NCBI GenBank assembly: GCA_965231095.1
Contig: OZ246416.1
Location: forward strand, 536,909-600,908
Origin: an uncultured Gammaproteobacteria bacterium
GTDB lineage: Bacteria > Patescibacteriota > Patescibacteriia > XYB2-FULL-38-15
DNA length: 64,000 nucleotides
Direction: 5' to 3'
This document shows, piece by piece, positions 3,994-58,308 of the stretch. Position numbers and translations under genes: made by a program. How positions within the stretch are numbered: position 1 is the first letter of the stretch; each line of letters starts with the position of its first letter. The notes under the pieces are model-generated. The model saw only the letters and a program-made list of their open reading frames with translations, did no database searches and had not been told where the DNA came from.

Positions 3994-4018
3994 CTCTGGG
4001 TTCCTCCCACCCGGAGCC

Positions 4019-4170: not shown

Positions 4171-4195
4171 TAACTGTTCTGAAATGGATGAAAAT

Positions 4196-4330: not shown

Positions 4331-4353
4331 TTTTAGATAGAAAGGGAAGGAAG

Positions 4354-5709: not shown

Positions 5710-5714
5710 GCGCA

Positions 5715-5763
5715 GGGCGGACGATGCAAGGTGAAAACCAAGCATCGTCCGCCCGTTTTTTTT
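5715..5763 (+). terminator. Rho-independent terminator.
   Basis: gggcggacgatgc...gcatcgtccgccc stem followed by T9. Confidence 0.7.
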
Positions 5764-5839
5764 ACTAAAAAACAGGCTACATGCCCGTCTTATTTTTAAC
5801 CTTATAAACTTTAGAGCTTTTTAACTTTAAAACTAAACC

Positions 5840-37159: not shown

Positions 37160-39577
37160 CTACCACCCGCAGCCGATGCGGCCAAGGTAGATCTCGTAGC
37201 CGCCTTCGTCGCGAACATCGGACCAGGCAAGCAAGTATTCGTGACCCGTCCAAACCAATGACAGTCCATCTCTTTGTACACAAGTTGTAGCCCGAAAACC
37301 GGAACCCGCTCTGCTACCATCTTCCTTCAATCGCATGAAGTAACATTCTGCTCTGCCAGTGGCATAATTTTCTTGCCACCAAAGACCGTAGCCATTTCCG
37401 TTCCAAGCAATAGCTGGATTAGAAGAATCGTCGGGGGTTATTGTCAGCTGTCTCTCCGTATCAATTTCCGTACCGCTTGCATCGATCCCGGCGAAGTAAA
37501 TTTCTTCTTTTCCGTCCGTAAAGGCAGTCCACACCAAGGCATAGGAAGAGCCATTCCAAACAAGCATTGGGATCGCGCCCCCTCCCGATAAGGGAGCTGT
37601 GGCTACAACCGTAGTGTCTCCAATTGGTGAAGCCATGGAAGTAAATCTGCCAAAATGTATTTCTTGATTTCCAAAAAAAGTAGATACCCACGTTAATCCG
37701 TACTCTGTGCCATTCCAAACTATATTCGGGCGAGCCAGACTAGCGGCCGAGTCTGCTACAAGTGTCATCTCTGAACCGATCTCGGCACCACCAGCGGATA
37801 ACCCTGCGAAGTAAATGTCACCATCACAAGAGTGTCCAAAGGCAATACCGAATTGACTTCCATCCCAAGCAATAGATGAATGGTAAGCCGAAAGTATTCC
37901 GATATGCTCCGCCAACAAAACACCACCGCCAATATCCGAACCCGCCGGGTCAAAATGAGCGGCGTAGATATCTCCGTAACCGGAGCGGTAATCTGTCCAG
38001 GTAAAACCGTATCCTCCGCCTGTCCAAACACCTGACACCGAAAAGAGTTGTGCGGGGGTGCCGATCACTCGTATATCGCCGCCAATTTTGGTGAGAGACG
38101 TATCTGCTCGGGCAAAGTAGATCTCGGTGTTGCCGTCACTCAAATATTCCCAAACAACACCAACTTCAGTGCCTGTCCAAAAAAGAACTGGCCTTCTTGG
38201 ATAACCAACTGAGTCTGTAAAACGTGACCCAGTGAAGGTGTACGAAAAAACCGCAGGATCCAAATCATTACAATCATAGCCACCACAAAGGCCGTCTGTG
38301 TAAGTGTCGTGGTCGCGGTCGCGAATGCGATGTCGACATGTGCCAGCCGCGCAAGAGTCGGCTGTGCAATCATCGCCATCTCCACAAGAAAGTTCCGCCG
38401 GAGACTCATCGGTCGCGCCATCACAGTCGTTGTCTACCCCATCGCAGATCTCGGGCATTTCAGAATCCACGTTACAGTATGAACCAGAACCTCCAAGCGA
38501 GCAGACATACGTCCCGCTGCAAGGAGAAATTCCGCAAACGCTCCTGAGCTCCGGCCAGTCTTCGTCGGTCGCGCCGTCGCAATCGTTGTCCAATTCGTCG
38601 CAGAGTTCGGGTGTGCCAAAAGGAATATCAACGTCGCAAACAGTGCCGCGCTCCAAGGGTTCGCAGACCCAGACATTGCTCCGTTCGCATTCCCCCCAAC
38701 CTGCTGTACAAGCAACGCCAAGCAATGGCCAGTTCTCGTCCGTCTCGCCGTCGCAGTCGTCATCAAGATGATTGCAGCGTTCAACGTGGATCTCGTAGTC
38801 TCCGTCGCAAACGGTGCCTCGATGCAGCGGCTCACAAGCCCAGACTCCCGTCCGCTCGCAAAGTGGCGTTGGCCTGAAAGCACAAACGTCGCCAAGCAAG
38901 GGCCAGGTTTCGTCGATCTCGCTGTCGCAATCTTCATCTAGGCTGTTGCAGAGTTCCGCCGCGCCGGGATGGATGCCCGCGTTCGCGTCGTCGCAGTCGC
39001 CTTCGGATTCGGTAAACGTATCGCCATCGTCGTCGGTTATTGTGGGGTCTGCTGCAGGACGTAGCCATCCTTCGACGGTGTAATTTCTGCTGTCACTAAC
39101 AACGGTGTATCTTCCACTGTCAACATCCATATCCAGGCGGCGAAAACGTCCCGGGATATTATGCCAGTTCTGCTCAATGAGCGTGATGAAGTTGCTCCCC
39201 ACCGCGTAGATGATTGCGATGTGACCATAACGGCCACCCTGGAAAGTGATCGCATCACCTTGCCGCGGGGCTTCCGTTTCGCCATTTCGGAAAGATCTCA
39301 GATCGAGTCTTTCCGCGCGACCGAATATCTGGTTAGCATTACCCCACCGTTCGCCGCTTCTTCCGTGGAACCTCTTCGCATATTCTACACACTGGTAGAA
39401 TCCGCGCCCAGTGCCAGTACAATCGCCTCGCGCGCCGTTCGAAAACGCATCAACTCCGCTCAAGGTACCTAGTGACTCCCCGCAATTGCCACTGCACGGC
39501 GCGCAGAGATCATCTCCCCAAGCAACCTGCGGCAATAGCAAACACAGTGCAACAACCAACGTCTGCAACTTTTCCAT
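37160..39577 (-). CDS. Secreted CHAP-domain peptidoglycan amidase/peptidase fused to four CxxxD(D/E)DCDGxxDE Cys-rich repeats and a 7-bladed beta-propeller. High GC (~57%), likely foreign.
   Basis: Signal MEKLQTLVVALCLLLPQVAWG. CHAP motifs FYQCVEYAKRF and GDAITFQGGRYGHIAIIYAV. Repeats LCNSLDEDCDSEIDE, RCNHLDDDCDGETDE, LCDELDNDCDGATDE, ICDGVDNDCDGATDE. 7 units of W-G-x-x-YG-x-W ... EIYF. Confidence 0.7.
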   Translation of the reverse strand: MEKLQTLVVALCLLLPQVAWGDDLCAPCSGNCGESLGTLSGVDAFSNGARGDCTGTGRGFYQCVEYAKRFHGRSGERWGNANQIFGRAERLDLRSFRNGETEAPRQGDAITFQGGRYGHIAIIYAVGSNFITLIEQNWHNIPGRFRRLDMDVDSGRYTVVSDSRNYTVEGWLRPAADPTITDDDGDTFTESEGDCDDANAGIHPGAAELCNSLDEDCDSEIDETWPLLGDVCAFRPTPLCERTGVWACEPLHRGTVCDGDYEIHVERCNHLDDDCDGETDENWPLLGVACTAGWGECERSNVWVCEPLERGTVCDVDIPFGTPELCDELDNDCDGATDEDWPELRSVCGISPCSGTYVCSLGGSGSYCNVDSEMPEICDGVDNDCDGATDESPAELSCGDGDDCTADSCAAGTCRHRIRDRDHDTYTDGLCGGYDCNDLDPAVFSYTFTGSRFTDSVGYPRRPVLFWTGTEVGVVWEYLSDGNTEIYFARADTSLTKIGGDIRVIGTPAQLFSVSGVWTGGGYGFTWTDYRSGYGDIYAAHFDPAGSDIGGGVLLAEHIGILSAYHSSIAWDGSQFGIAFGHSCDGDIYFAGLSAGGAEIGSEMTLVADSAASLARPNIVWNGTEYGLTWVSTFFGNQEIHFGRFTSMASPIGDTTVVATAPLSGGGAIPMLVWNGSSYALVWTAFTDGKEEIYFAGIDASGTEIDTERQLTITPDDSSNPAIAWNGNGYGLWWQENYATGRAECYFMRLKEDGSRAGSGFRATTCVQRDGLSLVWTGHEYLLAWSDVRDEGGYEIYLGRIGCGW

Positions 39578-44989: not shown

Positions 44990-46594
44990 TTATTGTGTCT
45001 CCCTTACCGCCGGCGCCGGTTCTGTAGCCGGCTCGCTCTTCAAGATTGTCGGGGGCGGAACTACTCCGTCTCCCACTTCCGAGGTGACGCTGTCTAAAAT
45101 TTCTTTCACAAGAGGAATCACGACCGCCGATTTATAGAATGATCCGTCAGTCGCGCTTGTTTCTAAAACCGGAAACACTAAAGCCGGAACAAGAAGCTCA
45201 ATACTCTGATTGCCATCATATTTCCAATATCTCATATATTGAACCGACGGCGTGCCCAGTTTCACTTCTACTTCTTTCACCTGGAAATTTTCCACCGGAT
45301 AATTTCCCTGCGACCAAAGGTCTCCCTGAAGCGCGAATTTCATCAAACGCTCTTTATCCGTTTCCGCGGCATAGTTTGAACTTTGATAATTTTGCGTTTG
45401 CAATCCGTAAAAGCTTGAGACTTTCATGGTTCTAATATTTATGTTTACGGAAGGCCCGGATCGTTCATAGCCGCCTTGCTCCCAAACTTCTTTTCCGTCC
45501 ACAAGCAGCGGATATTGCACGGTCAGGGTGTCCGGAATCCAAATGTCCGCGGCCGGGGCGCCCAAAATTCCGATTCTCCAATTTTTATTCACTTTCGGCG
45601 CGCCGAAATTCGCGAGATTAATTCCGTAGCGGTTCATAAAATCGTTTGTCGCTTCAATCAACTTTTCGTCAGAGGGGACATCTGACTCGCGAAGCTGCGG
45701 CTGGGACTTATAATCCACGGGCATCATTCTCTGCCAATTTTCATACATGGAAACTATTCCTTCATAAGAATTGAAATCCACAATATATCCGCCCTCGCGA
45801 TCTTCGGCAAGCGACAGATTTTGCACCTTGGCGCTCGTCAATTTACTCGCGTCAAAAAGTCCAAAACCGATATTTCCCAAAACCGAATTCAAGTCTCCGT
45901 TGCCAAAACCTTTTTCCCGGCGCAAGACCGTCACGGCCGAATCAGTGAAAGAAAAATCTTCGCCCGTGTAAACATAATTATATCTTGTCATGTATTCCGG
46001 CGGCAGAATTTTCCCATCCGGCGCGGGCATTGATGTAGCTGTTCCCCCGCCTCCGCCCAATCCCAAAACCGCGCGGGAAGTTGACGAAGACATTGCCTCC
46101 GGTGTACCAAGCGGCGCGGTTGGTGCCGCAGCCCCCGAAGAATTATCAGCTTCAGCGCCGACTAAACCTTGGCTTGAAGTTACCAAATTGCCAAACGCCC
46201 GATCGCCCGCATCTTCAATATTTGCCGGTCCGGAAAAAAGCGCGAGCTGGCTTTCTCGATCAAATTTCGGCAAACTGATCCAGCCGTTTCGCACGGCCGG
46301 TACAACAACCGCTATCGCCAAAACTGCCGCGACCGTGGCAAAAGAAACTCCTCGCCAAAAAACCAAATTTTTCCAAAGCGACGGACGAGCGCTCCCCGCT
46401 TTTTCCAACTCTTCCGCTCGCGCCAACAATTTCATTTTTAATTCCTGGCGAAAATTTTCGTCAAATTTATCTTCCGGTTTCTGGGCAATCATTTTAGCCA
46501 TAGTGGCCTCCAATTCTTTTTGATATTTTTTAAGATCAGGATCAATTGTGAACAATTCGTCTAAAATTTCTTGGATTAAATTTTTCGTATTCAT
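44990..46594 (-). CDS. Single-pass membrane protein with a large extracytoplasmic domain. Candidate anti-sigma factor cognate to the upstream ECF sigma.
   Basis: N-terminal cytoplasmic helix-rich ~90 aa, TM VSFATVAAVLAIAVVVPAV, then ~420 aa outside. Immediately downstream of the sigma gene. Confidence 0.4.
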   Translation of the reverse strand: MNTKNLIQEILDELFTIDPDLKKYQKELEATMAKMIAQKPEDKFDENFRQELKMKLLARAEELEKAGSARPSLWKNLVFWRGVSFATVAAVLAIAVVVPAVRNGWISLPKFDRESQLALFSGPANIEDAGDRAFGNLVTSSQGLVGAEADNSSGAAAPTAPLGTPEAMSSSTSRAVLGLGGGGGTATSMPAPDGKILPPEYMTRYNYVYTGEDFSFTDSAVTVLRREKGFGNGDLNSVLGNIGFGLFDASKLTSAKVQNLSLAEDREGGYIVDFNSYEGIVSMYENWQRMMPVDYKSQPQLRESDVPSDEKLIEATNDFMNRYGINLANFGAPKVNKNWRIGILGAPAADIWIPDTLTVQYPLLVDGKEVWEQGGYERSGPSVNINIRTMKVSSFYGLQTQNYQSSNYAAETDKERLMKFALQGDLWSQGNYPVENFQVKEVEVKLGTPSVQYMRYWKYDGNQSIELLVPALVFPVLETSATDGSFYKSAVVIPLVKEILDSVTSEVGDGVVPPPTILKSEPATEPAPAVRETQ

Positions 46595-46611
46595 ATATTT
46601 TTTATTAATAA

Positions 46612-47184
46612 TTAGTTTAGAAAATTTGCGAAGATAAACATGGCAAACGCCGCCGTCCCGATTTCCGAACGAAGCCGCCCCATCTCGCGGGAAAAAATCA
46701 TTTTACAATTTGCCTCGGAAGTCCCGACAATTTCGGAAATTTCCCGATAAGACAATTCTCCCCAAAGCCGCATTGTTATAATTTCCCGGTGCGTCGGCTT
46801 GAATTTCGCCAGATATTTTTTCACCTCGTTTAATTTCTCCCGCGCGTCTAAATCAATTTCCAAATTTTCCGGAGCGGCTAAATCCCAAACATCTTCAATG
46901 TTTGCAGTTAGCCGGGCGGCGCGAAAATGATCAACCACGGCGTGGCGGGCAATGCCGTAAAGCCAGGCGGAAAAACTTCCGCGGCCGGATTTGTACCCGT
47001 TGATATTTTCCAGGGCTTTCATAAAAACCGCGGAAACAATATCTTCGGCCGTTTCCCTATGATATGTTTTGTAATAAACAAAGCTGTATATTTTTTTAAC
47101 ATACGCTTCGTAAAGGCTGCCAAAACCTTGAAAGTTTCCGGCTTGGCTCGCTTTAATGATTTGTTTTTCTTGATTTGGATCCAT
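46612..47184 (-). CDS. RNA polymerase sigma-70 factor, ECF subfamily.
   Basis: Region 2 and region 4 HTH LSYREISEIVGTSEANCKMIFSRE. Confidence 0.85.
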   Translation of the reverse strand: MDPNQEKQIIKASQAGNFQGFGSLYEAYVKKIYSFVYYKTYHRETAEDIVSAVFMKALENINGYKSGRGSFSAWLYGIARHAVVDHFRAARLTANIEDVWDLAAPENLEIDLDAREKLNEVKKYLAKFKPTHREIITMRLWGELSYREISEIVGTSEANCKMIFSREMGRLRSEIGTAAFAMFIFANFLN

Positions 47185-47310: not shown

Positions 47311-47391
47311 AGATATTCTCGGTCAAAGGCCGCAAGCTTTGGCGAGCCAAGATCACCTTCGCTAAAGCTACGGTGATCGATGGAGGAAACA

Positions 47392-47733
47392 ATGACACTC
47401 GGAGAACTGGCAGAACGAGAAAATCTCGTGGGCCGGGTTTTCCGGGCTCATGAGACAAACGGTTTCGCCTACCGCGGAATCGTCGCGAAGACAGAGGTTA
47501 GGGGGAAGACTGCTATTCTTTCCCTCAAAAACCACGACCGGCGCTTCGAAGGAAAGACCGGACACAGCAACTGGAAACATCTCCCGGATACCGAGATCGG
47601 CTTCGGCGCGGCAATCCAAATCCAGCAAGTGGAGAAGATCATTTCTTTTTTTGTTCCCGGAGCCATGAGCCGGATCTATCTCTACCCCAAGGGGACCAGA
47701 GTGGAGGAGGCAGAACATGCGCCCAGAATCTGA
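47392..47733 (+). CDS. High-GC hypothetical protein (~113 aa).
   Basis: GGAGG RBS 5 nt upstream. MTLGELAERENLVGRVFRAHE... Confidence 0.5.
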   Translation: MTLGELAERENLVGRVFRAHETNGFAYRGIVAKTEVRGKTAILSLKNHDRRFEGKTGHSNWKHLPDTEIGFGAAIQIQQVEKIISFFVPGAMSRIYLYPKGTRVEEAEHAPRI

Positions 47734-48085
47734 ATGGAAAGGCAACGCTCTCATCTTGCTTTCGGCGCTTGGCGTGGCCGCGTTCTACGGCGTCGCGACC
47801 GGACTCGTGCTCTGGCTCCTCAACTTTCCCGACGCCGCGGAAATCGGAGGGTTTGTTTCCACGGCCACGGGCGGGCTGGCGCTTCTTGTCGCGCTTTTCA
47901 TGATCATCAATTTCGCGCCAAATCGTCCGTTCGGACAACCGATGAGCTGGCTCGAACGCGGGTTCGTTCGGCTCTCCGGCATAGCGCTCTGCGTTTTGGT
48001 CGCCATTCCCTTTGTCGTGAGAACGCTCGGACGATTCTTGTGCCGAATCTTTGGCGCGAGGACACCCAAGGAGGAAAAAACTTAA
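47717..48085 (+). CDS. High-GC membrane protein (3-4 TM, hypothetical), overlapping the upstream gene.
   Basis: GGAGGAGG RBS. Hydrophobic helices. Confidence 0.5.
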   Translation: MRPESEWKGNALILLSALGVAAFYGVATGLVLWLLNFPDAAEIGGFVSTATGGLALLVALFMIINFAPNRPFGQPMSWLERGFVRLSGIALCVLVAIPFVVRTLGRFLCRIFGARTPKEEKT

Positions 48086-48098
48086 CGGCCGGATTCCA

Positions 48099-48127
48099 CC
48101 GCGAACTAATCTTCGCGGTTTTATTTT
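48099..48127 (+). terminator. Rho-independent terminator.
   Basis: ccgcgaa ctaatc ttcgcgg followed by ttttatttt. Confidence 0.6.
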
Positions 48128-48171
48128 GAAAAAAAGACTGGGCTTTGTTTTTGCCCAGTCATACCTTCCTC

Positions 48172-48558
48172 CTATGTTCTTCTCCCTCGCCGCCGCGGTC
48201 GAGGCGCCACGGATCCCGCCGGCTCCCGATGGGTCACGATTTCCCCTGGCCGGAAATTCCGGACAAGAACCTTCACGGCCTGATGCCGACCGCCGCGCGA
48301 CTTCTTCACCGCGATGGCGATTTTCCGCGCGAGCTTCCGGCGAGTTTCCTCGGAAATGTCCTCGGCTGGGAAGCAGACGTCCGCCGTGACAACGATCATC
48401 GGCTGGTCGCTCCAGATGTGGACGAGCTCCGTCGGGCACTCAACCAAAAGCTCAGCCGCCCCGAGCTCAAGCTCCTTCATCCCGAGGCAGGCCTTCCGCA
48501 CTGCCGCTATGCAATCCTCCGGACCGATCGGCGCGTTCAATACCCTGACCAAAAGCAT
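48172..48558 (-). CDS. High-GC hypothetical protein (128 aa).
   Basis: GGAGG RBS upstream on the minus strand. MLLVRVLNAPIGPEDCIAAV... Confidence 0.45.
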   Translation of the reverse strand: MLLVRVLNAPIGPEDCIAAVRKACLGMKELELGAAELLVECPTELVHIWSDQPMIVVTADVCFPAEDISEETRRKLARKIAIAVKKSRGGRHQAVKVLVRNFRPGEIVTHREPAGSVAPRPRRRGRRT

Positions 48559-48742
48559 TGGCCCCTCCTTCCTGCGAAAAATTTAACATTTAGAAAATAA
48601 AAAGTCAAACTCGGCCCCAACTTTTTTAAAATAAAAAAGCGCCACAGACATTTCTGCCCGTGGCGCGAAGACCAAAAAGTTGTCCTCCCCTTGCTACCCT
48701 ATCGCGAGCTCCTCCTTCCCGCGACTTTGCGGCCTTTGACCG

Positions 48743-49078
48743 TTAAATGGTCGGCCGGAGAGCCTCCCAGACCCTCGACTTCTCCCACCGCTCGTGGTCC
48801 GACGGAGGCAGACGCGACTCGTCCCCCGGCCGTCTGGTGGGCAGCGAATCCTTGCCGAGCAGGATCTCCCACTCGCCCACGCCGTCGCAGACGTCGCAGG
48901 ATGGATCACGGCCATGGCACGCGCCGCACGTGCACGGAACCCTCGCCGCCACCTTGAACGGATCCCTCGCCTTCTTCACTGCCGCCGAACCGTTCCTTCT
49001 CCCCATCTCTCCCTCTGCTCCTTCCCTTTCCCCCGCAAAAGAAAACCCGTGCCGAGCACAATATCCATAAATTATCAC
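48743..49078 (-). CDS. High-GC Cys-rich small protein (CxCxxCxxxxxxCxxC). Possibly starts at the internal Met.
   Basis: PCTCGACHGRDPSCDVCDG. Minus-strand terminator hairpin at ~48640-48680. Confidence 0.35.
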   Translation of the reverse strand: MIIYGYCARHGFSFAGEREGAEGEMGRRNGSAAVKKARDPFKVAARVPCTCGACHGRDPSCDVCDGVGEWEILLGKDSLPTRRPGDESRLPPSDHERWEKSRVWEALRPTI

Positions 49079-49136
49079 CTCAAAAAAATTTTGTCAAGAA
49101 ATATTTTTTATTTTTTAAAATATAGTGCTATAATAT

Positions 49137-52100
49137 ATGAATATGGCAAGGAGGAAAAAACTCCCTACTCGGGGAACCGCAAAAGCAAGACCGGCCGTGA
49201 AAAATTTATCTATAAATAATAGATATTTAGCCAAAGGTCTTATGAAAAAAAATACCAAAACACTCTTAATCACGAGCGTAATTTTTGTCATAGCTGTTTT
49301 AGCCGTAGCCACGACTATTTATATAACTAAATTTGTTCTCTCCTCCGACGGCTCGGGGACAAATTCTGTTTCCCCGGGCACCTCCACCGCCGGTGCCACA
49401 GGCGACACCCAAACTTTTACCTTCACCGCGGCGGAAACCATGGGCTCGGGCGAAATTTCTATCACGGTTCCTTCGGGCTGGAGCGCGCCGCAAGGATCGT
49501 CCGGCACAGCCGGCTATACCACAGCCACTTCAGCCGCGGGCACGGTTGCTGACGTAAAAGATAATGCCGACTCGGCCACTGGCTGGGTGGCGGGCAACGC
49601 TTGCACAAACGGACTTTCGCTTGATACTTCAGTAAAACACGAAGGTGGCGGTTCGGTTCAATGTGCCAATGGCAACGAAGGCGCTGGAAACCGCTGGTAT
49701 AAAAACATTACCTCGGAAAATTGGTCCGGCTATACCCGCGTCGGATTTTGGATCCGCTCTTCAGGATCAATCAGCGACACCAATCTCCGCTTTGGTTATG
49801 ACAACTCGGCGAATTTAGCCAGCCCCCTGGAACAAATTTCTTTTGGCCAAGTAATTCCGGCCAATACTTGGACTTATGTCGTTTTAAATTTTGGCGCCAC
49901 AACCCGCACCTCGGTTGTGAGTTTTGGTTTTGTAATAAGAGACGGAGCGGACCTGGACAATGAAAATGTTTGGATTGATGATTTATTAATCGGTCCGGGC
50001 GTTCCGACATATCCTGGCGGCAATGAAATTCGCGCGAGAATTTTACAACTTACGAGCGGACAAACCATGACCGTCACTTACGGCGCGGGCGGAGGAACTT
50101 CCGGAGCAACTGTTCCCACTGCCGCCGGCTCATACAATTTTTTAACTCAATCAAAAGTTTCCGATGCCGGCACTCTTACAAATATTGCTTCTTCGCCAAC
50201 CGTCACCGTAGGCGCCGGAGCGATTTCACAATTTACTCTGACTGATCCGGGAAATATAGGAGCCGGAGAACGGCTTGGCTACACAGTGACGAGAAAAGAC
50301 CAATACGGAAACACTGTCCTCTCGGGCACGAGCACGGTTTATCTTTATTCCAGTTCCGCCGGAGCCAACAAACGTTTTTACGACGCGGCCACGGGCGGAA
50401 ACATTATTACTTCAGTCACGATCGGAAACGGCCAGCCGTCAAAAAACTTCTGGTATTATGATGAGGCTCCTGGAACTTACACCATCACCACTTCAGACAA
50501 TACCACAAGCCCGGATGGCACCACGGGGATTGACGACGCCACCGATTCGGTCACAATTTCGGGCGGGGCCGTCGCGGAATTTATCTTAAACGATCCGGGC
50601 AATCTTACCTCCGGAGCGCGCGCCCCCTACAGCGTGTCACGCGAAGATCAATTTGGAAATTTAGTCACCACCGGCTCCACCACAGTTTATTTATACAGCA
50701 ACTCGGGAAGCATGGATTACGCTTTCTATGACGCGGCCACGGGCGGAAGCCAAATAACTTCAATAAATATCGGCAGCGGAAATTCTTCGGCAAATTTTTG
50801 GTATTATGACGAGCTGGCTGACACTTGGACTATCACCGCTTCAGACAATGCCACAAGCCCCGACGGCGCAACGGGCGCCTCCGACGGAACCGACAGCATC
50901 ACTGTTCTCCCGGGCGCCACTTCCCACTTTGTTTTAAATGATCCGGGAGATACGACAGCCGGCACGCGGCTTGGATATACTGTGACGCGCCAAGACCAGT
51001 TTGGAAATGTTGTCACTTCCGGGACGAACACGGTATATCTTTATTCCGATTCTTCCGGATTAAATTATCATTTTTATAACGCGGCCACGGGCGGAAGTAT
51101 CACGAGCTCCCGCCAAATTACGAGTGGCCAATCTACGGCAAACTTCTGGTATTATGACGAGCTGGCGGGAACTTTTTCTATCACTGCCTCCGACAACTCT
51201 TCGACCCCCGATGGAAATTTAGGGATTGATGATTCATCAGATAGCGTAATAATTTCCGGCGGAGCGGTTTCAAAATTTTCTCTAAACGATCCGGGCGATA
51301 TGACCGCGGAAACGCGGCTTGGCTACATTGTCACAAGAAAAGATCAATACAATAATCCTGCCACTTCCGGCTTTAACACCATCTATCTTTATTCAACTTC
51401 CGTAAGTCCGGCCAAAGCGTTTTTTAACGCGGCAAGCGGTGGCAATCAAATAACTTCCGCGAGTATTAACGACGGCCAATCCACGGCGAACTTTTGGTAC
51501 TACGACGATCTGGCCGGAATTTATACCATCACCTCTTCGGACAATGCTACTTTTCCGGATGACGCCACGGGAATTGACGACGCGACAGATTTATTGACTG
51601 TAAATGCCATACCCATTGTGGCGACCAGATTTACAATTTTAGATCCAACTGACGGCACGGTTGACGCGCCGATCACTGTCACAATCCGAGCGGAAGATGA
51701 CAGCAATAACGTTGACACAACCTACCAAAACGATGTGACATTGGTCGCGAGCAGTTCAGCTACGGGCGAAGGTTTGGTAAATATTGTAAATGGCCTTGGC
51801 ACCCTAAATCTTTCCGACACAGTCGCGGAAACTGTTAATTTATCTTTGTCTGATACAGAGGGCACTGGCCTTGTTGTCACCTCCGCGCAAGGAGTAATTT
51901 TTTCCGCCGGCGCCGCAGCTAAATTTTTTCTAAACGACCCGGGCAATACAGTCGCCGGCACCCGTTTGGGATATACTGTGACGCGCAAAGACCAATTTGA
52001 AAATTTAACCACCACGGGAACCACCGTAGTTTATCTTTACACCAATTCTTCTGGCACAACTACTTTTTATGATTCAGATGTCGGAGGAAATGAAATTTTA

Positions 52101-53690
52101 CACACCACTATTCTTTCCGGCCAATCAGACGCGAACTTCTGGTATTACGATGAACTCTCCGGCACACCAACCGTCACTGCTTCGGACAATTCTTCTTCTC
52201 CAAATGGAGCCACGGGAATTGACGATGACACTGACACACTGACAATTGGCGCCGGGGTTCTTGCCAAATTTACTTTAAATGATCCTGGCGACATGAGCGT
52301 GGAAACGCGGCTCGGCTACACAGTGACGAGAAAGGATAATTTTAATAATTTAATAACTTCGGGCGGCGCGACAGTTTCTCTCTACTCCAATTCCGCGAGC
52401 GCCAACAAATCTTTTTATGACGCGGCCACGGGAGGAAGTATTATCAATTCCACTGACATCAGCGCGGGAAATTCCGCGGCAAATTTTTGGTACTATGACG
52501 ATACCGCCGGTACCTACACCATTACCGTTTCGGATAATTCTTCTTCTCCGGATGGCGTGGACGGCACAGACGACGGAACCGACGCGGTGATTGTAAGCGC
52601 TGTACCGATTGTCGCCACGCGATTTAGCATTTTAAATCCAACTGACGTAACCGTCGGCAGCAACGCGATCATCACGGTGCGCGCCGAAGATAATAGCGGC
52701 AATGTTGACACAACTTACCAAAACGATGTCACTCTGGTCACAAGCGGATCGGCTACGGGGGAAGGATTGGTGGATATTGTAAACGGCATTGGAACAATAA
52801 CTGTAAGCGACAACATTTCTGAAATAGTTATTTTGTCCCTCACTGACAGCGAAGGAACTGGTTTAAATATCAGCTCAACTCAAGACATTGTCTTTCTTTC
52901 GACTAGCGGCGGAAGCGGAGGAATTTCAATTCCGGCGGAAGGGGCGCCAACTCTCCCCGTTTCCCTGACCGGCGCCACGCTTTCTTTTTCCGGCCGAGCT
53001 TTTCCCAACGCTAAAATTACAATCTTGGGCCGCGGAACTTCGCAAGACATTCCTTTAAAATCCTCTTTGGCGGACGCAAGCGGTGGATTCAATATAAATT
53101 TTGTCGGGGCTCTGCCGGCCGCCGCCATCAACGCTTACAAACTTACTTTTGAAGATAAAGAGGGCCGAACAACAGAAACTCCTGATTCCACTCCGGAGCA
53201 AATAACAAGTTTTAGCGCCACGGATATTTTTGCTCCGCCAACCCTTGGCTTTGGCAAATCAACTTTCTTGCGCGAAGATTTAATTACTCTGGCCGGCTAT
53301 GCCATGCCCGGAAATAAAATTGAAATTGAAATTGACGAAAAACAAATTCCTCGAGAAATTTTTGCCGGCAACGACGGCTCTTTCAAGCTTTCTCTTACTA
53401 ATTTTGATTACGCTTTCGGAAGCCACAAAGCCAGAATCCGCCAACGCGACAGCGCAAAGAGGGCAAGCGATTTTTCCTTGGATAAAATTTTCACCATCGC
53501 CAAGGTTTTCGCCCCGAACGCCGACTTAAACGACGACGGCAAATCCGACATTAGTGATTGGAGCATATTCCTCTTCCGCTGGGGCTCACCCGACCAAACA
53601 AAAAAATCTACCATTGATTTTAACAACGACGGCCGGGTGGATATTTCCGATTTCAGCATTTTTTTGCAAAGTTTAACCGCCACAAAATAA
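49137..53690 (+). CDS. Giant (~1500 aa) secreted/membrane-anchored surface protein with ~8 degenerate ~100-aa repeats, two ~75-aa repeats and a C-terminal dockerin module.
   Basis: Alternative start 49243 (MKKNTKTLLITSVIFVIAVLAV signal anchor). Repeats LNDPGxxxAGxRLGYTVTRKDQFGNxVTSGxxTVYLYS...ANFWYYDE...TITASDNSSSPDG. C-terminal DLNDDGKSDISDWSIF and DFNNDGRVDISDFSIF (dockerin Ca-binding repeats). Confidence 0.75.
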   Translation: MNMARRKKLPTRGTAKARPAVKNLSINNRYLAKGLMKKNTKTLLITSVIFVIAVLAVATTIYITKFVLSSDGSGTNSVSPGTSTAGATGDTQTFTFTAAETMGSGEISITVPSGWSAPQGSSGTAGYTTATSAAGTVADVKDNADSATGWVAGNACTNGLSLDTSVKHEGGGSVQCANGNEGAGNRWYKNITSENWSGYTRVGFWIRSSGSISDTNLRFGYDNSANLASPLEQISFGQVIPANTWTYVVLNFGATTRTSVVSFGFVIRDGADLDNENVWIDDLLIGPGVPTYPGGNEIRARILQLTSGQTMTVTYGAGGGTSGATVPTAAGSYNFLTQSKVSDAGTLTNIASSPTVTVGAGAISQFTLTDPGNIGAGERLGYTVTRKDQYGNTVLSGTSTVYLYSSSAGANKRFYDAATGGNIITSVTIGNGQPSKNFWYYDEAPGTYTITTSDNTTSPDGTTGIDDATDSVTISGGAVAEFILNDPGNLTSGARAPYSVSREDQFGNLVTTGSTTVYLYSNSGSMDYAFYDAATGGSQITSINIGSGNSSANFWYYDELADTWTITASDNATSPDGATGASDGTDSITVLPGATSHFVLNDPGDTTAGTRLGYTVTRQDQFGNVVTSGTNTVYLYSDSSGLNYHFYNAATGGSITSSRQITSGQSTANFWYYDELAGTFSITASDNSSTPDGNLGIDDSSDSVIISGGAVSKFSLNDPGDMTAETRLGYIVTRKDQYNNPATSGFNTIYLYSTSVSPAKAFFNAASGGNQITSASINDGQSTANFWYYDDLAGIYTITSSDNATFPDDATGIDDATDLLTVNAIPIVATRFTILDPTDGTVDAPITVTIRAEDDSNNVDTTYQNDVTLVASSSATGEGLVNIVNGLGTLNLSDTVAETVNLSLSDTEGTGLVVTSAQGVIFSAGAAAKFFLNDPGNTVAGTRLGYTVTRKDQFENLTTTGTTVVYLYTNSSGTTTFYDSDVGGNEILHTTILSGQSDANFWYYDELSGTPTVTASDNSSSPNGATGIDDDTDTLTIGAGVLAKFTLNDPGDMSVETRLGYTVTRKDNFNNLITSGGATVSLYSNSASANKSFYDAATGGSIINSTDISAGNSAANFWYYDDTAGTYTITVSDNSSSPDGVDGTDDGTDAVIVSAVPIVATRFSILNPTDVTVGSNAIITVRAEDNSGNVDTTYQNDVTLVTSGSATGEGLVDIVNGIGTITVSDNISEIVILSLTDSEGTGLNISSTQDIVFLSTSGGSGGISIPAEGAPTLPVSLTGATLSFSGRAFPNAKITILGRGTSQDIPLKSSLADASGGFNINFVGALPAAAINAYKLTFEDKEGRTTETPDSTPEQITSFSATDIFAPPTLGFGKSTFLREDLITLAGYAMPGNKIEIEIDEKQIPREIFAGNDGSFKLSLTNFDYAFGSHKARIRQRDSAKRASDFSLDKIFTIAKVFAPNADLNDDGKSDISDWSIFLFRWGSPDQTKKSTIDFNNDGRVDISDFSIFLQSLTATK

Positions 53691-53711
53691 ATTCATAATT
53701 ATATAAGATGT

Positions 53712-55442
53712 ATGAAAAAAATTCTTTATTCTCTAATCCTGGCGGCCGGACTTTTCACCTTCGCGGGAATTGCCGAAGCGGCAACTCTAAATGTTTCTTT
53801 GGGAAACGATGTCTACAACGTCGGCGACCAATTTAGCATTCATCTCCACATCGACAGCGAGGGGGTAAGTATAAACGCGGCGCAAGCCACCCTAACTTAT
53901 CCCGCGGATATTTTGGAAGTGACCAATATCAGCAAATCAGGATCAATTTTTGCTTTCTGGCTACTGGAGCCGGACTTTTCCGTCCCCGGACAAATTTCTT
54001 TTGTCGGCGGATCAACGAGCGGCTACATTGGAAAATCTCTCCAAGTTTTGACGGTTAATTTTAAAGTGAAAAAAGCCGGGGTGGCAAACCTCACTCTTTC
54101 CGACGCCGCCATCACGCTTGCCGACGGCACGGGAACAAACGTCACAAGAACAACGGGCGGAGCAAAAATCACCACTCAAGAAAAAACCGCCGCGCCGCCG
54201 ACCACTCCCCCTCCTTCCCAAATCTTGCCTCCGCCAGTACAGATTGTCCGCCAACCCGCAGTTTCAAAGGTAAAACCGGCCGGACCAAAAATTGAAGTCC
54301 CACTTTATCCTGATCCGGAAAAATGGTACAATACCGCGGCTAATTTTTTAGTCCGATGGGACCTGCCCGCCGACGTGGCTGCCGTGGCGACGGAATTAAA
54401 TAAAATCCCTGATTTTGATCCAACAAAAACCGAGGGGCTGTTTGATAATAAAATGTTTGCCCGCCCGGACGACGGAATTTGGTATTTGCACGTCAGATTT
54501 AAAAATAATCTTGGCTTTGGAACAACCGGCCATTATCGCATCGCCCTGGACACTTCGCCTCCAACTTCATTTGACGTCGCGGTTTTTGAAGGCGCCCAAA
54601 CCGATAGCCCCGCCCCGACCATAACTTATGAATCCGGCGACCAGCTTTCCGGCCTTAGCAAATATTTCATCAGAATTGATAACGGTGATTTGTTGGAAAC
54701 GGATAAAACTTCCTACACTCTACCTCTCCAAAAACCCGGCAAACATATTGTAAGAGTGAGCGCCAAAGATAATGCTGATAATTTAACTGAAGAAGTTTTA
54801 AATTTAGAAATCCTACCAATCGTTGCTCCGCTCATTACTTCCGTAAGCCGTGATGTTTTTGTCGGCGAAGGAGGATTAAACGCGAGCGGCACAGCCCTGC
54901 CAGAGGTCACCCTGCTTATTTCTTTAAACCGCCAAAACGGCGAAGAAATTTTAAAAACAGAAACGCAATCGGACGCCAGCGGATTATGGCTTGTAAAATT
55001 TGAGGAATCATTAAAAAAAGACAAATATTATATTGAAGTGACGGCCAAAGATAAGCGCGGCGCCTTGAGTTTGCCGATAAAATCAGATATAATTGTTGTA
55101 CGGGAACGGCCGCTCCTTACGATTCGCGGGACAGAAATAACCCAACTTGCGGCGCTTGTCGGTCTCATCACTCTCCTCCTGATTGCTTTTTCCACCGGCT
55201 GGTACGCCCGCCTGCTTACCAAAAAACAGCGCGGGAGAAAAATAACTATCGCCGAGCGAGAAACGACCGCGCTTTTAAACTTGATCAAAAAAGATCTTGA
55301 TAGAATAATGAAATCTTTTGGCAACGGAAAATTGGAAAAAAGAGAAGCGGAGGAAATTGAACAGTTGCTCCAAAAAATTGCGGAAAATGTGAATAAAATG
55401 CAGAGATATGTTGTCCCGGAAATTGGAAAAATTGAAAAATAA
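53712..55442 (+). CDS. Membrane-anchored protein with an N-terminal cohesin-like domain, Pro-rich linker, Ig-like region, C-terminal TM and a cytoplasmic coiled coil.
   Basis: ATLNVSLGNDVYNVGDQFSIHLHIDSEGVSINAAQATLTYPADILEVTNISKSG...QVLTVNFKVKKAGVANLTL (cohesin-type pattern). TM LAALVGLITLLLIAF. Confidence 0.65.
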   Translation: MKKILYSLILAAGLFTFAGIAEAATLNVSLGNDVYNVGDQFSIHLHIDSEGVSINAAQATLTYPADILEVTNISKSGSIFAFWLLEPDFSVPGQISFVGGSTSGYIGKSLQVLTVNFKVKKAGVANLTLSDAAITLADGTGTNVTRTTGGAKITTQEKTAAPPTTPPPSQILPPPVQIVRQPAVSKVKPAGPKIEVPLYPDPEKWYNTAANFLVRWDLPADVAAVATELNKIPDFDPTKTEGLFDNKMFARPDDGIWYLHVRFKNNLGFGTTGHYRIALDTSPPTSFDVAVFEGAQTDSPAPTITYESGDQLSGLSKYFIRIDNGDLLETDKTSYTLPLQKPGKHIVRVSAKDNADNLTEEVLNLEILPIVAPLITSVSRDVFVGEGGLNASGTALPEVTLLISLNRQNGEEILKTETQSDASGLWLVKFEESLKKDKYYIEVTAKDKRGALSLPIKSDIIVVRERPLLTIRGTEITQLAALVGLITLLLIAFSTGWYARLLTKKQRGRKITIAERETTALLNLIKKDLDRIMKSFGNGKLEKREAEEIEQLLQKIAENVNKMQRYVVPEIGKIEK

Positions 55443-55521
55443 TTAGCAGAAAGCTATAATAATAAAAATAATCAATGGCCCTTACGCTTGGGGGAGGTTG
55501 GGGTAAAAAAATTTAAAAATT

Positions 55522-55896
55522 ATGAAAATCCTAATCGTGGAGGACGAAGAAGTTTTAGCAAAAGTCCTTGAAGAAAAATTCTCTGAGGAAAAATTCAACG
55601 CGCAAACCGTAGCCGACGGGAAAAAAGTCCTGGCGGCGATAAAAAATTTCCGGCCGGACGTCGTTCTTTTAGATCTCTTACTCCCGGGAAAAACCGGTTT
55701 GGAAATTCTCGCCGAAATGAAGGAAACAAAAATTCTTGAATCTCTGCCCGTAATTGTTTTGTCCAACCTTGATGACGATGTAAGCATTAAGAAAGCTCTC
55801 TCGCTTGGCGCGGTTGATTATTTTGTCAAAGCCCAACATCCGATTGGCGAGGTTGTGGAAAAAGTTAAGGAATATTTGGGAAAACCTAAAGTCTAA
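55522..55896 (+). CDS. Response regulator, receiver domain only (CheY-like).
   Basis: MKILIVEDEEV...VVLLDLLLPGKTGLEIL...VIVLSNL...LSLGAVDYFVK. Confidence 0.9.
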   Translation: MKILIVEDEEVLAKVLEEKFSEEKFNAQTVADGKKVLAAIKNFRPDVVLLDLLLPGKTGLEILAEMKETKILESLPVIVLSNLDDDVSIKKALSLGAVDYFVKAQHPIGEVVEKVKEYLGKPKV

Positions 55897-55945: not shown

Positions 55946-58246
55946 ATGTTTCTAAAAAATCTAAAATTTGGGACTAAATTAAAAATTCTTTTTTTGACCA
56001 TAGTTTTGGCGTCTCTTTTCACTAATGGATACGCCAATTTTATTTTAGCCAAAAACAATATCCAAAACTATCTTCTTGATTCACTGAATCTCCTGGCCGA
56101 CCTTACAAAAAACGACCTTTTATCCTTTGAGGCACAGCTTAAAAATCGCGCCATTGATTTTTCTTCCGACGGATTTATCCGCGATAGCGCCTCCCTTCTC
56201 GCAAAATCTTCCGACAGTGAAGTTGCACTCGCGCTTTGCGATCACCTCGCCAAAAATAAAATGTCGCTTGATTCGACGATTTACGGCATAAATGTTACCG
56301 ACCTTTCCGGCCGCATTCTTGCTTCCACGGACAAAACCGAAGTTGGCCAGAACGAAGCGGCTCACGAATATTTCCTCCGCGGGCAAAATCTTCCTTACGG
56401 CGAGGCATCTGTTGGCGACGTAGCTTTGAGCCACCACTTTGGAAAAACTTCTCCGGAAATCGCCGTCGCGGCACCGCTTTTTGAAAAATCAAATGGCAAA
56501 AAAATCGGTTTCATTATAAATTATATTGACGCAAAATATTTAAGTGACGTTGCCAAAGCGCGAGAAAGAAGACAAGTCGCCGGAGAATCTTTATATATTT
56601 CCCTGGAACAAACAGACACTTTTGAAACTGTCCTAATCAACAAAAATAAATTACTTTTGGCCGAATCTAAATTTAAGAGCGACGAGCTGGTGCTGAAAGA
56701 AAAGATTGAAACGCTCCCCGTTTTGGAATGTGCCCAAAACAGAACCGTCAACGGCCCCTTTACCGACTATCGCGGTGAAAAAGTGATTGGGGTTTCAAGG
56801 TGCCTCGACCATGGCTGGACTTTGGTTGTAAAAGTTGATCAGAGGGAAGCCTTCGGCGATTTAGCCCAAACCAGAAATTACACAATTTTGGCAGGATTTT
56901 TAATTGCTATTCTTCTCTCTTTCGCAATTAATTTTTTCATCAAAAAAATCACGAGGCCGATCCGCGAATTGTTGTCAGTGGCGCAAAAAATCGGTAAAGG
57001 AAATTTAAATCAGCGCGTTAAGATAATCTCAAAAGATGAAATCGGAGAATTTGCCGAAGTATTTAACCAAATGACAAGCGACCTCCAAAATCTTTACGCG
57101 ACTCTGGAAAAAAGAATTAAGGAAAAAACAAAAACCTTAGAAGAACAAGTTGTGGAATTAAAAAAATTCCAATTGGCCGTAGCCAATACCGCCGACCATG
57201 TAGTGATTACCGATCCCGACGGCTATACTCTTTACGCTAACGCCGCCGTGGAAAAAATAACCGGCTATTCAAGAAAAGAAATCATCGGAAAAAAAACATC
57301 CCTCTGGGGAAATCTGATGGACGAAAAATTTTATGAAAAAATGTGGAAAACAATCAAAGATGACAAAAAAACATTTATTGGGGAACTAACCAACCAAAGA
57401 AAAAATGGAGAAAAATATATTGCCGAAGTTCGCATTTCCCCGATTTTAGACAAACGAGGACGAGTTGTTTTCTTTGTCGGGATTGAACGTGATATCACAA
57501 AAGCCAAAGAGATCGACCGCGCCAAAACTGAATTAATTTCTTTAGCCTCGCATCAACTCCGCACGCCGCTTACGGCCGTCAAATGGTACGCGGAAATGCT
57601 CACGGCCCAAAAGACGGGAAAATTAACCGCCAAACAAAAAAAATATCTTGATGAAATTTATCGCGGCAATGAAAGAATGATTACTCTAGTTGGCTCTCTC
57701 TTAAATGTTTCAAGAATTGATCTAGGAACTTTTGCTATAACTCCCAAACCGGAAGATATCGGAAAAATTGCCGATAGCTCCCTCCCCGATTTCGAACCGC
57801 AAATCAAAAATAAAAAAATAACCCTAAAAAAAGAGTATAATCCCGCTTTGCCGAAAATTAACGTTGACGCGAAATTACTGCGCATTGTTTTTCAAAACCT
57901 TCTTTCCAACGCCGTAAAATACACTCCCGAAAAAGGAAAAATAATTTTATCAATTACCAGACAAAAATCGGCCGTTTTGATTCGTATAGCCGATGATGGC
58001 ATTGGCATTCCAAAAGAAGCTCAAGTAAAAATTTTTACGAAACTCTTCCGCGCCGACAACGCGAAGATTACAGATCCAAGCGGCACAGGATTGGGTTTAT
58101 ATATTGTAAAAGCAATCGTGGATGCCTCCGGCGGAAAAATCTGGTTTGAGTCTGAAGAAAACAAAGGCACAACTTTTTATGTCACTCTACCGCTAAAAGG
58201 CGTAAGAAGAAAGGCGGGTACGGTCGGGTTGGAACTCACGCCCTAA
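55946..58246 (+). CDS. Sensor histidine kinase (periplasmic sensor, HAMP, PAS, HisKA, HATPase_c).
   Basis: Two TMs. HAMP region. PAS (VVITDPDGYTLYANAA). H-box LASHQLRTPLTAV. G-box GTGLGLYIVKAIV. Confidence 0.9.
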   Translation: MFLKNLKFGTKLKILFLTIVLASLFTNGYANFILAKNNIQNYLLDSLNLLADLTKNDLLSFEAQLKNRAIDFSSDGFIRDSASLLAKSSDSEVALALCDHLAKNKMSLDSTIYGINVTDLSGRILASTDKTEVGQNEAAHEYFLRGQNLPYGEASVGDVALSHHFGKTSPEIAVAAPLFEKSNGKKIGFIINYIDAKYLSDVAKARERRQVAGESLYISLEQTDTFETVLINKNKLLLAESKFKSDELVLKEKIETLPVLECAQNRTVNGPFTDYRGEKVIGVSRCLDHGWTLVVKVDQREAFGDLAQTRNYTILAGFLIAILLSFAINFFIKKITRPIRELLSVAQKIGKGNLNQRVKIISKDEIGEFAEVFNQMTSDLQNLYATLEKRIKEKTKTLEEQVVELKKFQLAVANTADHVVITDPDGYTLYANAAVEKITGYSRKEIIGKKTSLWGNLMDEKFYEKMWKTIKDDKKTFIGELTNQRKNGEKYIAEVRISPILDKRGRVVFFVGIERDITKAKEIDRAKTELISLASHQLRTPLTAVKWYAEMLTAQKTGKLTAKQKKYLDEIYRGNERMITLVGSLLNVSRIDLGTFAITPKPEDIGKIADSSLPDFEPQIKNKKITLKKEYNPALPKINVDAKLLRIVFQNLLSNAVKYTPEKGKIILSITRQKSAVLIRIADDGIGIPKEAQVKIFTKLFRADNAKITDPSGTGLGLYIVKAIVDASGGKIWFESEENKGTTFYVTLPLKGVRRKAGTVGLELTP

Positions 58247-58308
58247 ACAAAATATTAAAAACCCCCCGCCGAATCGGCGGGGGGTTTTTGTTTTAGAAAA
58301 ATTTAACT

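Follow-up and report, generated by a model that had tools for sequence, protein, structure and literature searches.

How is a giant secreted protein kept at the surface of a Patescibacteria (CPR) bacterium when, beyond its Sec signal peptide, it has nothing to anchor it? The locus analyzed here, part of a 64,000-nucleotide stretch of DNA (the window), raises this question because the next gene encodes a membrane protein with a cohesin. An earlier note had read the end of the giant as a dockerin and the two proteins as a candidate cohesin-dockerin display system, and this reading is supported by profile searches, predicted folds and co-occurrence of the pair. Both ORFs (1517 and 576 aa) were confirmed where the note had placed them, 21 nt apart and with no terminator found between them, and Pfam identifies the response regulator and histidine kinase that were said to follow directly 3' of the pair (Table 1). 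Since the extended -10 element abuts the ATG at 49137, the true translation start of the giant may be M36 (49242), which would shorten the protein to 1482 aa.

Table 1. Coordinates of the features of the locus, in nucleotides of the window
Feature	Position	Strand	Basis
Extended -10 promoter-like element, TGcTATAAT	49126..49134	+	Read from AT-rich leader of giant gene; putative function
Giant secreted surface protein	49137..53690	+	ORF; 1517 aa from first ATG, 1482 aa from M36
Sec-type signal peptide of giant, MKKNTKTLLITSVIFVIAVLAVATTIYITKFVLS then SDGSGTN	49242..49340	+	Putative cleavage site
N-terminal distal module: Ig-like domain interrupted by beta-jelly-roll, CBM-like domain	49341..50216	+	Kept in 17/84 loci
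Rod of eight related ~116-aa Ig-like repeats	50226..52901	+	HMM from one repeat: 8 copies
Two Big_13/Big_6/Bap-like Ig domains	52959..53501	+	Tail profile matches Bap 7dm0_A at 2.4e-10
Dockerin: two F-hand segments (aa 1463-1484, 1494-1515) and stop codon	53520..53690	+	Dockerin_1, tail profile
Cohesin-bearing type-I membrane anchor, 576 aa	53712..55442	+	ORF; full-length family in Patescibacteria
Signal peptide of anchor, MKKILYSLILAAGLFTFAGIAEA then A	53712..53780	+	Read from sequence; AF2 N-terminal helix aa 2-15
Cohesin domain, aa 24-156	53781..54179	+	
Pro/Thr-rich disordered linker, aa 157-193	54180..54290	+	pLDDT <50 at aa 160-173; length variable among homologs
Stalk, three Ig-like domains (Y_Y_Y/FN3-like, PKD/OmpL47-like, Big_13)	54291..55121	+	AF2 beta domains, pLDDT ~90
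Single transmembrane helix, aa 479-499, LAALVGLITLLLIAFSTGWYA then RLLTKKQRGRK	55146..55208	+	Hydrophobic; inside AF2 helix 478-535
Cytoplasmic helical hairpin tail, aa 500-576	55209..55439	+	AF2 helices 478-535 and 543-575, pLDDT 57-85
Sigma-70-like promoter ahead of response regulator gene, TTGAAA-17-TATAAT	55432..55460	+	11/12 matches; consensus match only
Receiver-only (CheY-like) response regulator, 124 aa	55522..55896	+	Response_reg 82.4 bits
Sensor histidine kinase dCache_1-HAMP-PAS-HisKA-HATPase_c, 766 aa	55946..58246	+	Pfam
Intrinsic terminator, strong, bidirectional, 15-bp stem, closing module	58257..58289	.	Sequence

The giant does end in two 22-residue Ca-binding dockerin repeats, as had been proposed. 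Both segments occur in the protein, DLNDDGKSDISDWSIF at aa 1463-1478 and DFNNDGRVDISDFSIF at aa 1494-1509, and their Ca loops, DLNDDGKSDISD and DFNNDGRVDISD, both have D1, N3, D5, D9 and D12; across 66 species these ligand positions (1, 3, 5, 9 and 12) are 89-100% conserved. Dockerin_1 (PF00404) scores 19.2 bits in the whole giant, below the cut-off of 22.9, and 23.2 bits in a scan restricted to the 188-aa tail, so that the match is at the cut-off here and clear in relatives, where 17 of 18 homologous tails are hit (best 8.5e-10). The tail profile also matches solved dockerins (2y3n_B at 5e-5, 2vn6_B at 2.6e-4, and 1daq). The EF-hand-like fold expected of a dockerin is predicted by AF2 (model pTM 0.59), with helices at tail residues 143-153, 158-162 and 174-186 (pLDDT 87-92) in the order helix, short helix, helix and with both EF-hand-like loops intact; each of the two segments, ~22 residues long, is a Ca-binding loop followed by a helix, as in type I dockerins. 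A Foldseek search with the two-domain tail model returned Ig matches and no dockerins.

The same model has Ig strands at residues 47-126 (pLDDT ~90), and ~7 residues separate the end of the Ig domain from the first Ca loop. The second C-terminal Ig domain (aa ~1378-1455) directly abuts the dockerin in an X-module-like position and is co-conserved with it in relatives, as in X-Doc dyads. The tail profile matches the X-Doc constructs 4wi0_B and 4u3s_B weakly (E 0.14-0.53), and the C-terminal Ig domains of the giant also match SiiE (2yn3).

Ahead of this tail, the estimate of ~10 Ig-like repeats proved right, because eight related repeats are joined by one N-terminal and the two C-terminal Ig-like domains. 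An HMM built from one repeat recovers the eight at aa 364-1255 (i-E 1e-17 to 1e-58), six of them long and the other two, which begin at aa 831 and aa 1162, shorter variants; they match no Pfam family. A reading of the gene as a DNA tandem repeat or recombination cassette was discarded: TRF came back empty, and at the DNA level the repeats have diverged. The Sec signal peptide is predicted from a hydrophobic N-terminus found in 46 of the 54 complete giant homologs, many of which end the signal region at the homologous position with AxA/ADGSGTN (the slash marks the putative cleavage site).

The jelly-roll insert of the distal module (~150 aa, aa ~140-290, nt 49554-50006) resembles carbohydrate-binding modules below threshold, both for CBM_11 (5 of 14 members, best 0.0027) and for a Cip1-like jelly roll (best 4e-4; PDB 3zyp, E 0.18), and homologs of the distal module carry no Pfam annotation. 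A CBM identity is thus not upheld, and because the resemblance is sub-threshold it is the architecture alone that suggests the label adhesin.

The anchor belongs to a family with full-length homologs in Patescibacteria (40-84% identity; more than 100 full-length representatives of 50%-identity clusters among the best 150 matches). An HMM scan for Cohesin (PF00963) gave 33.1 bits at aa 28-148, above the cut-off of 24.1 (E 7.3e-8), and the HMM matches 14 of 21 anchor homologs (best 1.2e-9). The domain is predicted to be a nine-stranded beta-sandwich (jelly-roll) superposable on solved cohesins; cohesin matches of the anchor sequence profile against the PDB were weak (5aoz, E 0.13). Each anchor, whether that of the window or an aligned homolog, has just one cohesin, which occupies the distal N-terminal end of a type-I membrane protein. 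With a giant that has a Sec signal peptide and lacks a membrane or wall anchor of its own, this topology fits display. It does not resemble a cellulosome, which can be ruled out: there are no enzymes, no dockerin on a carbohydrate-active enzyme and no multi-cohesin scaffoldin, and only one dockerin and a single cohesin are present in the window.

The rest of the anchor departs in part from its first description. The signal peptide, cohesin, Pro-rich linker and transmembrane helix were correctly recognized (A23/A24 are invariant or nearly so in the homolog alignment), but the three Ig-like domains (aa ~194-470) had been overlooked, and for the cytoplasmic "coiled coil" the prediction is a helical hairpin instead. 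The stalk formed by these domains is the most conserved part of the anchor, with invariant columns clustered there (Big_13 in 20, Y_Y_Y in 9 and PKD in 6 of the 21 homologs), and the hairpin is found in 21/21 aligned homologs, in which L553, Y566 and I574 are all but invariant.

Two sets of loci were compared, 84 seeded with the anchor and 73 metagenome loci, an independent collection, seeded with the dockerin. A dockerin-ending ORF lies immediately upstream of the anchor in 83 of the 84 by motif (81 by phmmer), on the same strand and ending 0-100 nt before the anchor gene; in the one exception, L049, no dockerin gene occurs within 10 kb of the anchor. Conversely, the anchor follows within ~500 nt downstream in 73/73 dockerin-seeded loci, adjacent in 69 and with only the response regulator gene between in 4. 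In relatives, therefore, either member of the pair is almost always accompanied by the other, and from this reciprocal adjacency we infer that dockerin and cohesin bind physically. It is also possible to imagine the anchor as a general dock for several dockerin proteins encoded elsewhere, a minimal scaffoldin for enzymes or toxins that has the adjacent giant as just one client, or that the two domains never bind. One cohesin type does serve many dockerins in cellulosomal and C. perfringens systems, and the L049 anchor stands without an adjacent dockerin gene. However, the reciprocal adjacency, the single dockerin-bearing ORF in the window, the joint divergence of dockerin and anchor, and the family-specific D-[WF]-S-I-F signature present at giant tails all point the other way, and we regard this alternative as most improbable.

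The joint divergence is itself informative. Dockerin and anchor distances are correlated (r = 0.63), with r = 0.63 for the cohesin domain versus 0.64 for the stalk (p ~0.001; mirror-tree, partial Mantel). Because the cohesin gives no stronger a signal than the stalk, specific cohesin-dockerin co-evolution is not upheld and the correlation indicates co-inheritance only. What is inherited together is the Ig-dockerin tail and the anchor; the cargo bodies ahead of the tail range from 276 to >3300 aa, fall into 24 unrelated classes and are unrelated outside the tail in 61% of pairs. Cargo is hypervariable while plug and socket are conserved, a pattern absent from the earlier note. It suggests a conserved socket for exchangeable, fast-evolving adhesins, and conserved plugs and sockets, common to hundreds of lineages and carrying hypervariable giant surface proteins, are what would be expected of host-specific adhesins.

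The same data bear on whether the giant could instead be the main coat, an S-layer-like protein or a spacer fibril, with the cohesin stalk as S-layer anchor. In favor of this are the near-universal occurrence of the pair within the range of the family and the strong conservation of the anchor stalk. Most of the giant is made up of Ig arrays, as are S-layer proteins among the Foldseek matches (7ptp, 8cka), and neither a catalytic domain (Pfam) nor a clearly identified ligand-binding domain was found in it. Yet those matches are generic Ig arrays with TM-scores of 0.14-0.24, and the cargo varies more than ten-fold in length, with unrelated body classes between related species. Variability of this kind is seen more typically in adhesins subject to diversifying selection than in proteins that form a lattice, and it argues against a coat, which we consider quite unlikely.

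The giant-anchor pair, the response regulator and the kinase together make up a conserved module, a point that had also gone unmentioned. The response regulator gene is on the same strand as the pair in 78 of the 84 anchor-seeded loci and the kinase is present in 59, almost always on the same strand; across loci the two occur on either side of the pair. All 77 module copies of the response regulator are <=138 aa, and E7, D8 and D51 are 100% and K103 99% conserved. Together with a kinase that has both HisKA (60.5 bits) and HATPase_c (105.8 bits), this receiver with its phospho-acceptor Asp constitutes a two-component system. Other neighbors were ruled out as parts of the module: the divergent ECF sigma factor upstream (6/84 loci) and the 534-aa neighbor of that gene (0/84) are not conserved with it, and the LytR-like gene downstream occurs in 1/84.

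This synteny raises the question of whether the module is primarily one of signalling, in which anchor and giant would act as an extracellular contact or force sensor, or effector, through the hairpin to response regulator and kinase, with integrin-like coupling in the outside-in or the inside-out sense. Having no output domain but all phospho-acceptor residues, the response regulator must act by protein-protein contact; its gene lies between giant and anchor in the 4 metagenome loci noted above, and the cytoplasmic hairpin is kept in all homologs. A likeness in gene neighborhood comes from the Saccharibacterium Southlakia, whose essential dockerin-domain protein SEML1_0315 adjoins a CheY-like response regulator and a PAS kinase according to the supplement of PMC10633639. 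Synteny is, however, the whole basis of this case. No part of the anchor is less conserved than the tail (mean distance 0.73 versus 0.52-0.56), which shows neither a conserved His nor any known docking motif; the near-consensus promoter ahead of the response regulator suggests separate transcription; and the two-component system could regulate something else or persist by operon inertia. We find a primarily signalling role very unlikely. A broader proposal, speculative and itself unlikely, is that in much of the Patescibacteria the four genes form an organelle for regulated attachment to hosts, in which the response regulator would dock on the hairpin, switching display or grip or relaying contact or force inward in an integrin-like manner, and the socket would allow cargo to be swapped rapidly as hosts change.

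The explanation that we consider probable is a non-cellulosomal cohesin-dockerin surface-display system of a Patescibacteria bacterium, for exchangeable adhesins. The giant would be exported by Sec and its signal peptide removed, after which its C-terminal Ig-dockerin dyad (X-Doc-like) would plug with Ca2+ into the single cohesin of the anchor. The Pro-rich linker and three Ig-like domains would raise this cohesin off the membrane, probably through the cell envelope, and the eight-repeat rod would project the distal module (Ig and CBM-like jelly roll) outward, putatively for adhesion to a host cell or surface. In evolution, plug and socket are inherited together and the cargo body is swapped freely between lineages. 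Searches of an open-access full-text subset of the literature turned up no account of a cohesin-dockerin pair from CPR bacteria.

Patescibacteria make up a large share of bacterial diversity, and cultivated members are attached to other cells. To our knowledge, the molecules with which they hold their hosts are largely unknown, type IV pili apart, and the module is a concrete candidate for this attachment. If the display reading is true, cohesin-dockerin biology takes in, beyond the assembly of enzymes, the modular display of adhesins on a transmembrane anchor, this display is linked to a two-component system, and surface-display engineering gains a natural, orthogonal Coh-Doc pair. The essential dockerin-domain protein in a genetically tractable Saccharibacterium, as given in the supplement of PMC10633639, suggests that experiments are within reach.

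The closest known system is that of Ruminococcus flavefaciens CttA (XMod-Doc) and ScaE (cohesin), in which there is likewise a single cohesin on a cell-anchored protein and a non-enzymatic partner that has binding modules at its N-terminus and an Ig-like module and a dockerin at its C-terminus. The genes for CttA and ScaE are neighbors in the sca cluster, as are the partner genes here. Load geometry would also be the same: the cell holds the cohesin by its C-terminal side, and the pull on X-Doc comes from its N-terminal side (PMC4266597). The differences are that ScaE is linked to peptidoglycan by sortase/LPXTG whereas the window anchor has a transmembrane helix, a cytoplasmic hairpin and a three-Ig stalk; that CttA is a two-CBM cellulose binder and the cargo here a hypervariable Ig-repeat giant; and that the module belongs to a CPR bacterium without a cellulosome and is linked to a two-component system. 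The Clostridium perfringens GH84/GH33 toxin complexes and the Archaeoglobus fulgidus pairs are also non-cellulosomal, but such pairs either connect one secreted glycoside hydrolase with another or have no known role. We know of no such pair that is a dedicated membrane socket for an adjacent giant adhesin, with lineage-wide synteny and a linked two-component system. The anchoring scaffoldins of C. thermocellum (SdbA/OlpB/Orf2p, OlpA/OlpC) use SLH domains to hold wall polymers and recruit enzyme-loaded scaffoldins, whereas the window has no SLH domain, enzymes or multi-cohesin scaffoldin. Finally, the Bap, SiiE and MpIBP/RTX adhesins share with the giant a tandem Ig-like rod and a distal binding region; they are retained by sortase, a T1SS plug or the outer membrane, and the giant by a candidate cohesin-dockerin plug.

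An earlier note, made from the sequence alone, had described a giant repeat protein ending in a dockerin beside a membrane protein with a cohesin-like domain; both are present, and both ORFs were located exactly where it had put them. The dockerin occupies the final 56 residues of the giant as two repeats, DLNDDGKSDISD-WSIFLFRW and DFNNDGRVDISD-FSIFLQSL, and both loops carry the canonical calcium ligands at positions 1, 3, 5, 9 and 12, which are 89-100% conserved across 66 species. Dockerin_1 scores 19.2 bits in the full-length giant, short of the cut-off of 22.9, but the isolated tail reaches 23.2 bits; among 18 homologous tails, 17 are matched as well (best 8.5e-10). A profile of the tail matches the solved dockerins 2y3n_B (5e-5), 2vn6_B (2.6e-4) and 1daq, and the AF2 model of the tail (pLDDT 85.3) has an Ig sandwich followed, seven residues on, by a helix, a short helix and a helix. 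No other ORF within the window bears a dockerin.

The membrane protein, hereafter the anchor, matches Pfam Cohesin at 33.1 bits (cut-off 24.1), as do 14 of 21 of its homologs. The layout first proposed for it was right about the cohesin and the TM helix but overlooked the three Ig-like stalk domains, where conservation across the family is highest (20/21 homologs have Big_13). When the anchor profile was searched against 1.84 billion 50%-identity representatives, 2815 proteins matched at E <= 1e-30; among the best 150 of these, more than 100 are full-length anchors of 560-610 aa with a single end-to-end match, and the remainder are giants in which the Ig domain of the anchor stalk is reused 10-44 times. 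The closest relatives of the 576-aa protein are Patescibacteria/CPR without exception, one of them a complete 984-kb Wolfebacteria genome, so that the term "tiny-genome bacterium" used in the note is a fair description.

Features of the proposed display module; gene and terminator positions refer to the window, domain positions to the anchor protein
Feature	Position	Strand	Details
Giant gene	49137..53690	+	1517-aa ORF
Anchor gene	53712..55442	+	576-aa ORF
Response regulator gene	55522..55896	+	124 aa, Pfam
Histidine kinase gene	55946..58246	+	766 aa, Pfam
Terminator	58257-58289		15-bp stem, end of block
Anchor signal peptide			MKK...AEA, before A
Anchor cohesin	aa 24-156		
Anchor Pro/Thr linker	aa 157-193		disordered
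Anchor stalk	aa ~194-470		three Ig-like domains
Anchor TM helix	aa 479-499		single; positively charged stretch after it
Anchor cytoplasmic tail			76 aa, helical hairpin; AF2 model, overall pLDDT 83.9

The co-occurrence of the two genes in relatives, which the note had suggested as a check, is borne out from both directions. In a sample seeded with the anchor (84 loci, from 80 species-representative genomes and 4 other contigs), a homolog of the giant's C-terminus ends no more than ~100 nt upstream of the anchor on the same strand in 81 loci, and a dockerin ORF, counted by motif, stands beside the anchor in 83; the dockerins of two loci (L013 and L021) are more divergent, and a third (L044) has an assembly gap. 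Only one anchor locus (L049, 5000..16000) has no dockerin-ending ORF within 10 kb, and there kinase and regulator genes stand upstream of the anchor instead. We also collected Ig-dockerin tails independently from metagenome contigs, and among the 73 with at least 600 nt downstream, the anchor gene follows the tail directly in 69. In the other four (L089, L101, L118 and L159) only a response regulator gene lies between giant and anchor, which underlines the regulator's membership of the module. Taken together, these counts show that the association is reciprocal and essentially obligate.

The tail and anchor are conserved while the rest of the giant, its cargo body, varies. This body spans 276-3054 aa in complete ORFs and more than 3316 aa in truncated ones, and falls into 24 classes, with 61% of pairs lacking detectable similarity outside the tail; the N-terminal module seen in the window is common to only 17/84 loci and its repeats to 48/84. 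Mean distances for the conserved parts are 0.50 (dockerin), 0.52 (cohesin) and 0.56 (stalk). Divergence of the dockerin is correlated with that of the anchor (r = 0.63-0.64, Mantel p ~0.001), and because the correlation is equal for cohesin and stalk, it shows that plug and socket are co-inherited rather than specifically co-evolving. Split giants were seen at two loci: in L085 the dockerin tail (8565..8885, 106 aa) is cut off by a frameshift from the body of 1387 aa, and in L166 (406..1767) the N-terminal Ig/CBM-like module forms its own 453-aa ORF, with a gap of 26 nt before a 1484-aa ORF that ends in the dockerin. Assembly error, decay or phase variation could account for these splits.

A Sec-type signal peptide, often ending in AxA ahead of ADGSGTN, is found at the N-terminus of 46 of 54 complete giant homologs, and the window's giant has a hydrophobic stretch followed by the same DGSGTN motif. 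Its real start may be M36 (49242), as an extended -10 element (TGcTATAAT, 49126-49134) directly abuts the first ATG. The distal module, next after the signal peptide, comprises an Ig-like domain into which a ~150-aa domain is inserted; the latter gives only sub-threshold hints of CBM_11 and the Cip1 jelly roll, and its homologs lack annotation. The rod (aa 364-1255) consists of eight related Ig-like repeats of ~116 aa each, too diverged to appear as tandem repeats at the DNA level, and is followed by two Big_13/Bap-like Ig domains (profile match to Bap 7dm0, 2.4e-10). In the arrangement we propose, the C-terminal Ig-dockerin dyad of the exported giant would plug into the cohesin topping the membrane-anchored stalk, holding the giant non-covalently and in a Ca2+-dependent manner. 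What the sequences show directly is which domains are present, the export signals and topology, how the operon is built, the reciprocal synteny, the variable cargo and the linkage to a two-component system; the tethering itself we consider probable. The rod would then project the distal binding module, making the giant a putative adhesin, for which we put the chances at about even; a coat or S-layer role for this long, variable protein is one main alternative.

The other main alternative is a signalling role for the module. In 78/84 loci a receiver-only regulator is encoded on the same strand, and a kinase is present in 59/84; the orders are GIANT-anchor-RR(-HK-RR) or HK-RR-GIANT-anchor. None of the 77 module regulators examined exceeds 138 aa, and E7, D8 and D51 are invariant among them (100%), with K103 at 99%. 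Because the regulator has no output domain, it must work by contacting other proteins, for which the putative cytoplasmic hairpin of the anchor is an obvious candidate.

Giant and anchor ORFs are 21 nt apart with no terminator-like site found between them, and a near-consensus sigma-70 promoter (11/12 matches) lies immediately upstream of the regulator gene. The surrounding genes are housekeeping (tRNA synthetases, NusA, GroEL, pyruvate kinase). Upstream and divergent lies a pair (44990..47184, -) made up of an ECF-type sigma factor gene (46612..47184, -) and, in an anti-sigma-like position, a gene whose 534-aa product has a single TM segment and matches no Pfam family. The pair is kept in the close relative L085; neither it nor a downstream LytR-like gene is conserved with the module elsewhere, and we do not count them as members. 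A 1.7-kb block (47368..49078) rich in GC (~53%) lies between the genes for the sigma factor and the giant and holds four small ORFs (117, 122, 128 and 111 aa, the second with TM segments) without Pfam matches, which are probably real genes since the same four are called in L085.

Farther off, a valyl-tRNA-synthetase-like protein (1068 aa, 27239..30445, -) has an unusual fusion, with a complete His_Phos_1 domain (115 bits, aa 450-602) inside the synthetase core. A candidate host-wall-attacking enzyme of 805 aa (37160..39577, -), encoded where GC content is locally high, has a CHAP peptidoglycan-hydrolase domain together with three MopE-type Cys-rich metal-binding motifs. Positions 1..6000, with a GC content of 56-62% against ~41-44% elsewhere, encode a Ser/Thr protein kinase (1145..2917, +) and a collagen-triple-helix-repeat protein (4354..5709, +) and may be foreign DNA.

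The cohesin-dockerin display put forward in the note is thus supported by domain matches, export signals, topology and reciprocal synteny, as a TM-anchored module linked to a two-component system, with exchangeable giant cargo and predicted binding, conserved in many Patescibacteria. Its chemistry is familiar, yet it provides a concrete candidate for the apparatus by which a major uncultivated radiation attaches, one that is widely conserved and open to experiment. The module lacks enzymes and has just one cohesin and one dockerin, so it is no cellulosome and belongs with the non-cellulosomal pairs, of which those of C. perfringens and A. fulgidus have been characterised; such pairs were reportedly catalogued by Peer et al. 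in 2009 as widespread in bacteria and archaea. Some members already carry the NCBI names "cohesin domain-containing protein" or "dockerin type I domain-containing protein", so neither domain is new in itself; in the open-access full texts searched, we found no description of the pair or module in CPR bacteria. The nearest item is the dockerin-domain protein SEML1_0315, essential in the Saccharibacterium Southlakia (PMC10633639), whose gene adjoins a CheY-like regulator and a PAS kinase (supplement of PMC10633639), a layout reminiscent of the HK-RR-GIANT order. In function the module would be closest to CttA XMod-Doc:ScaE of R. flavefaciens, where the cohesin is fixed at its C-terminal side and force reaches the dockerin protein through its N-terminus (PMC4266597), a geometry that the proposed arrangement matches. 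The module differs in that a TM anchor with a cytoplasmic hairpin takes the place of sortase or SLH anchoring, and in its three-Ig stalk, hypervariable giant cargo, lineage-wide synteny and attached two-component system.
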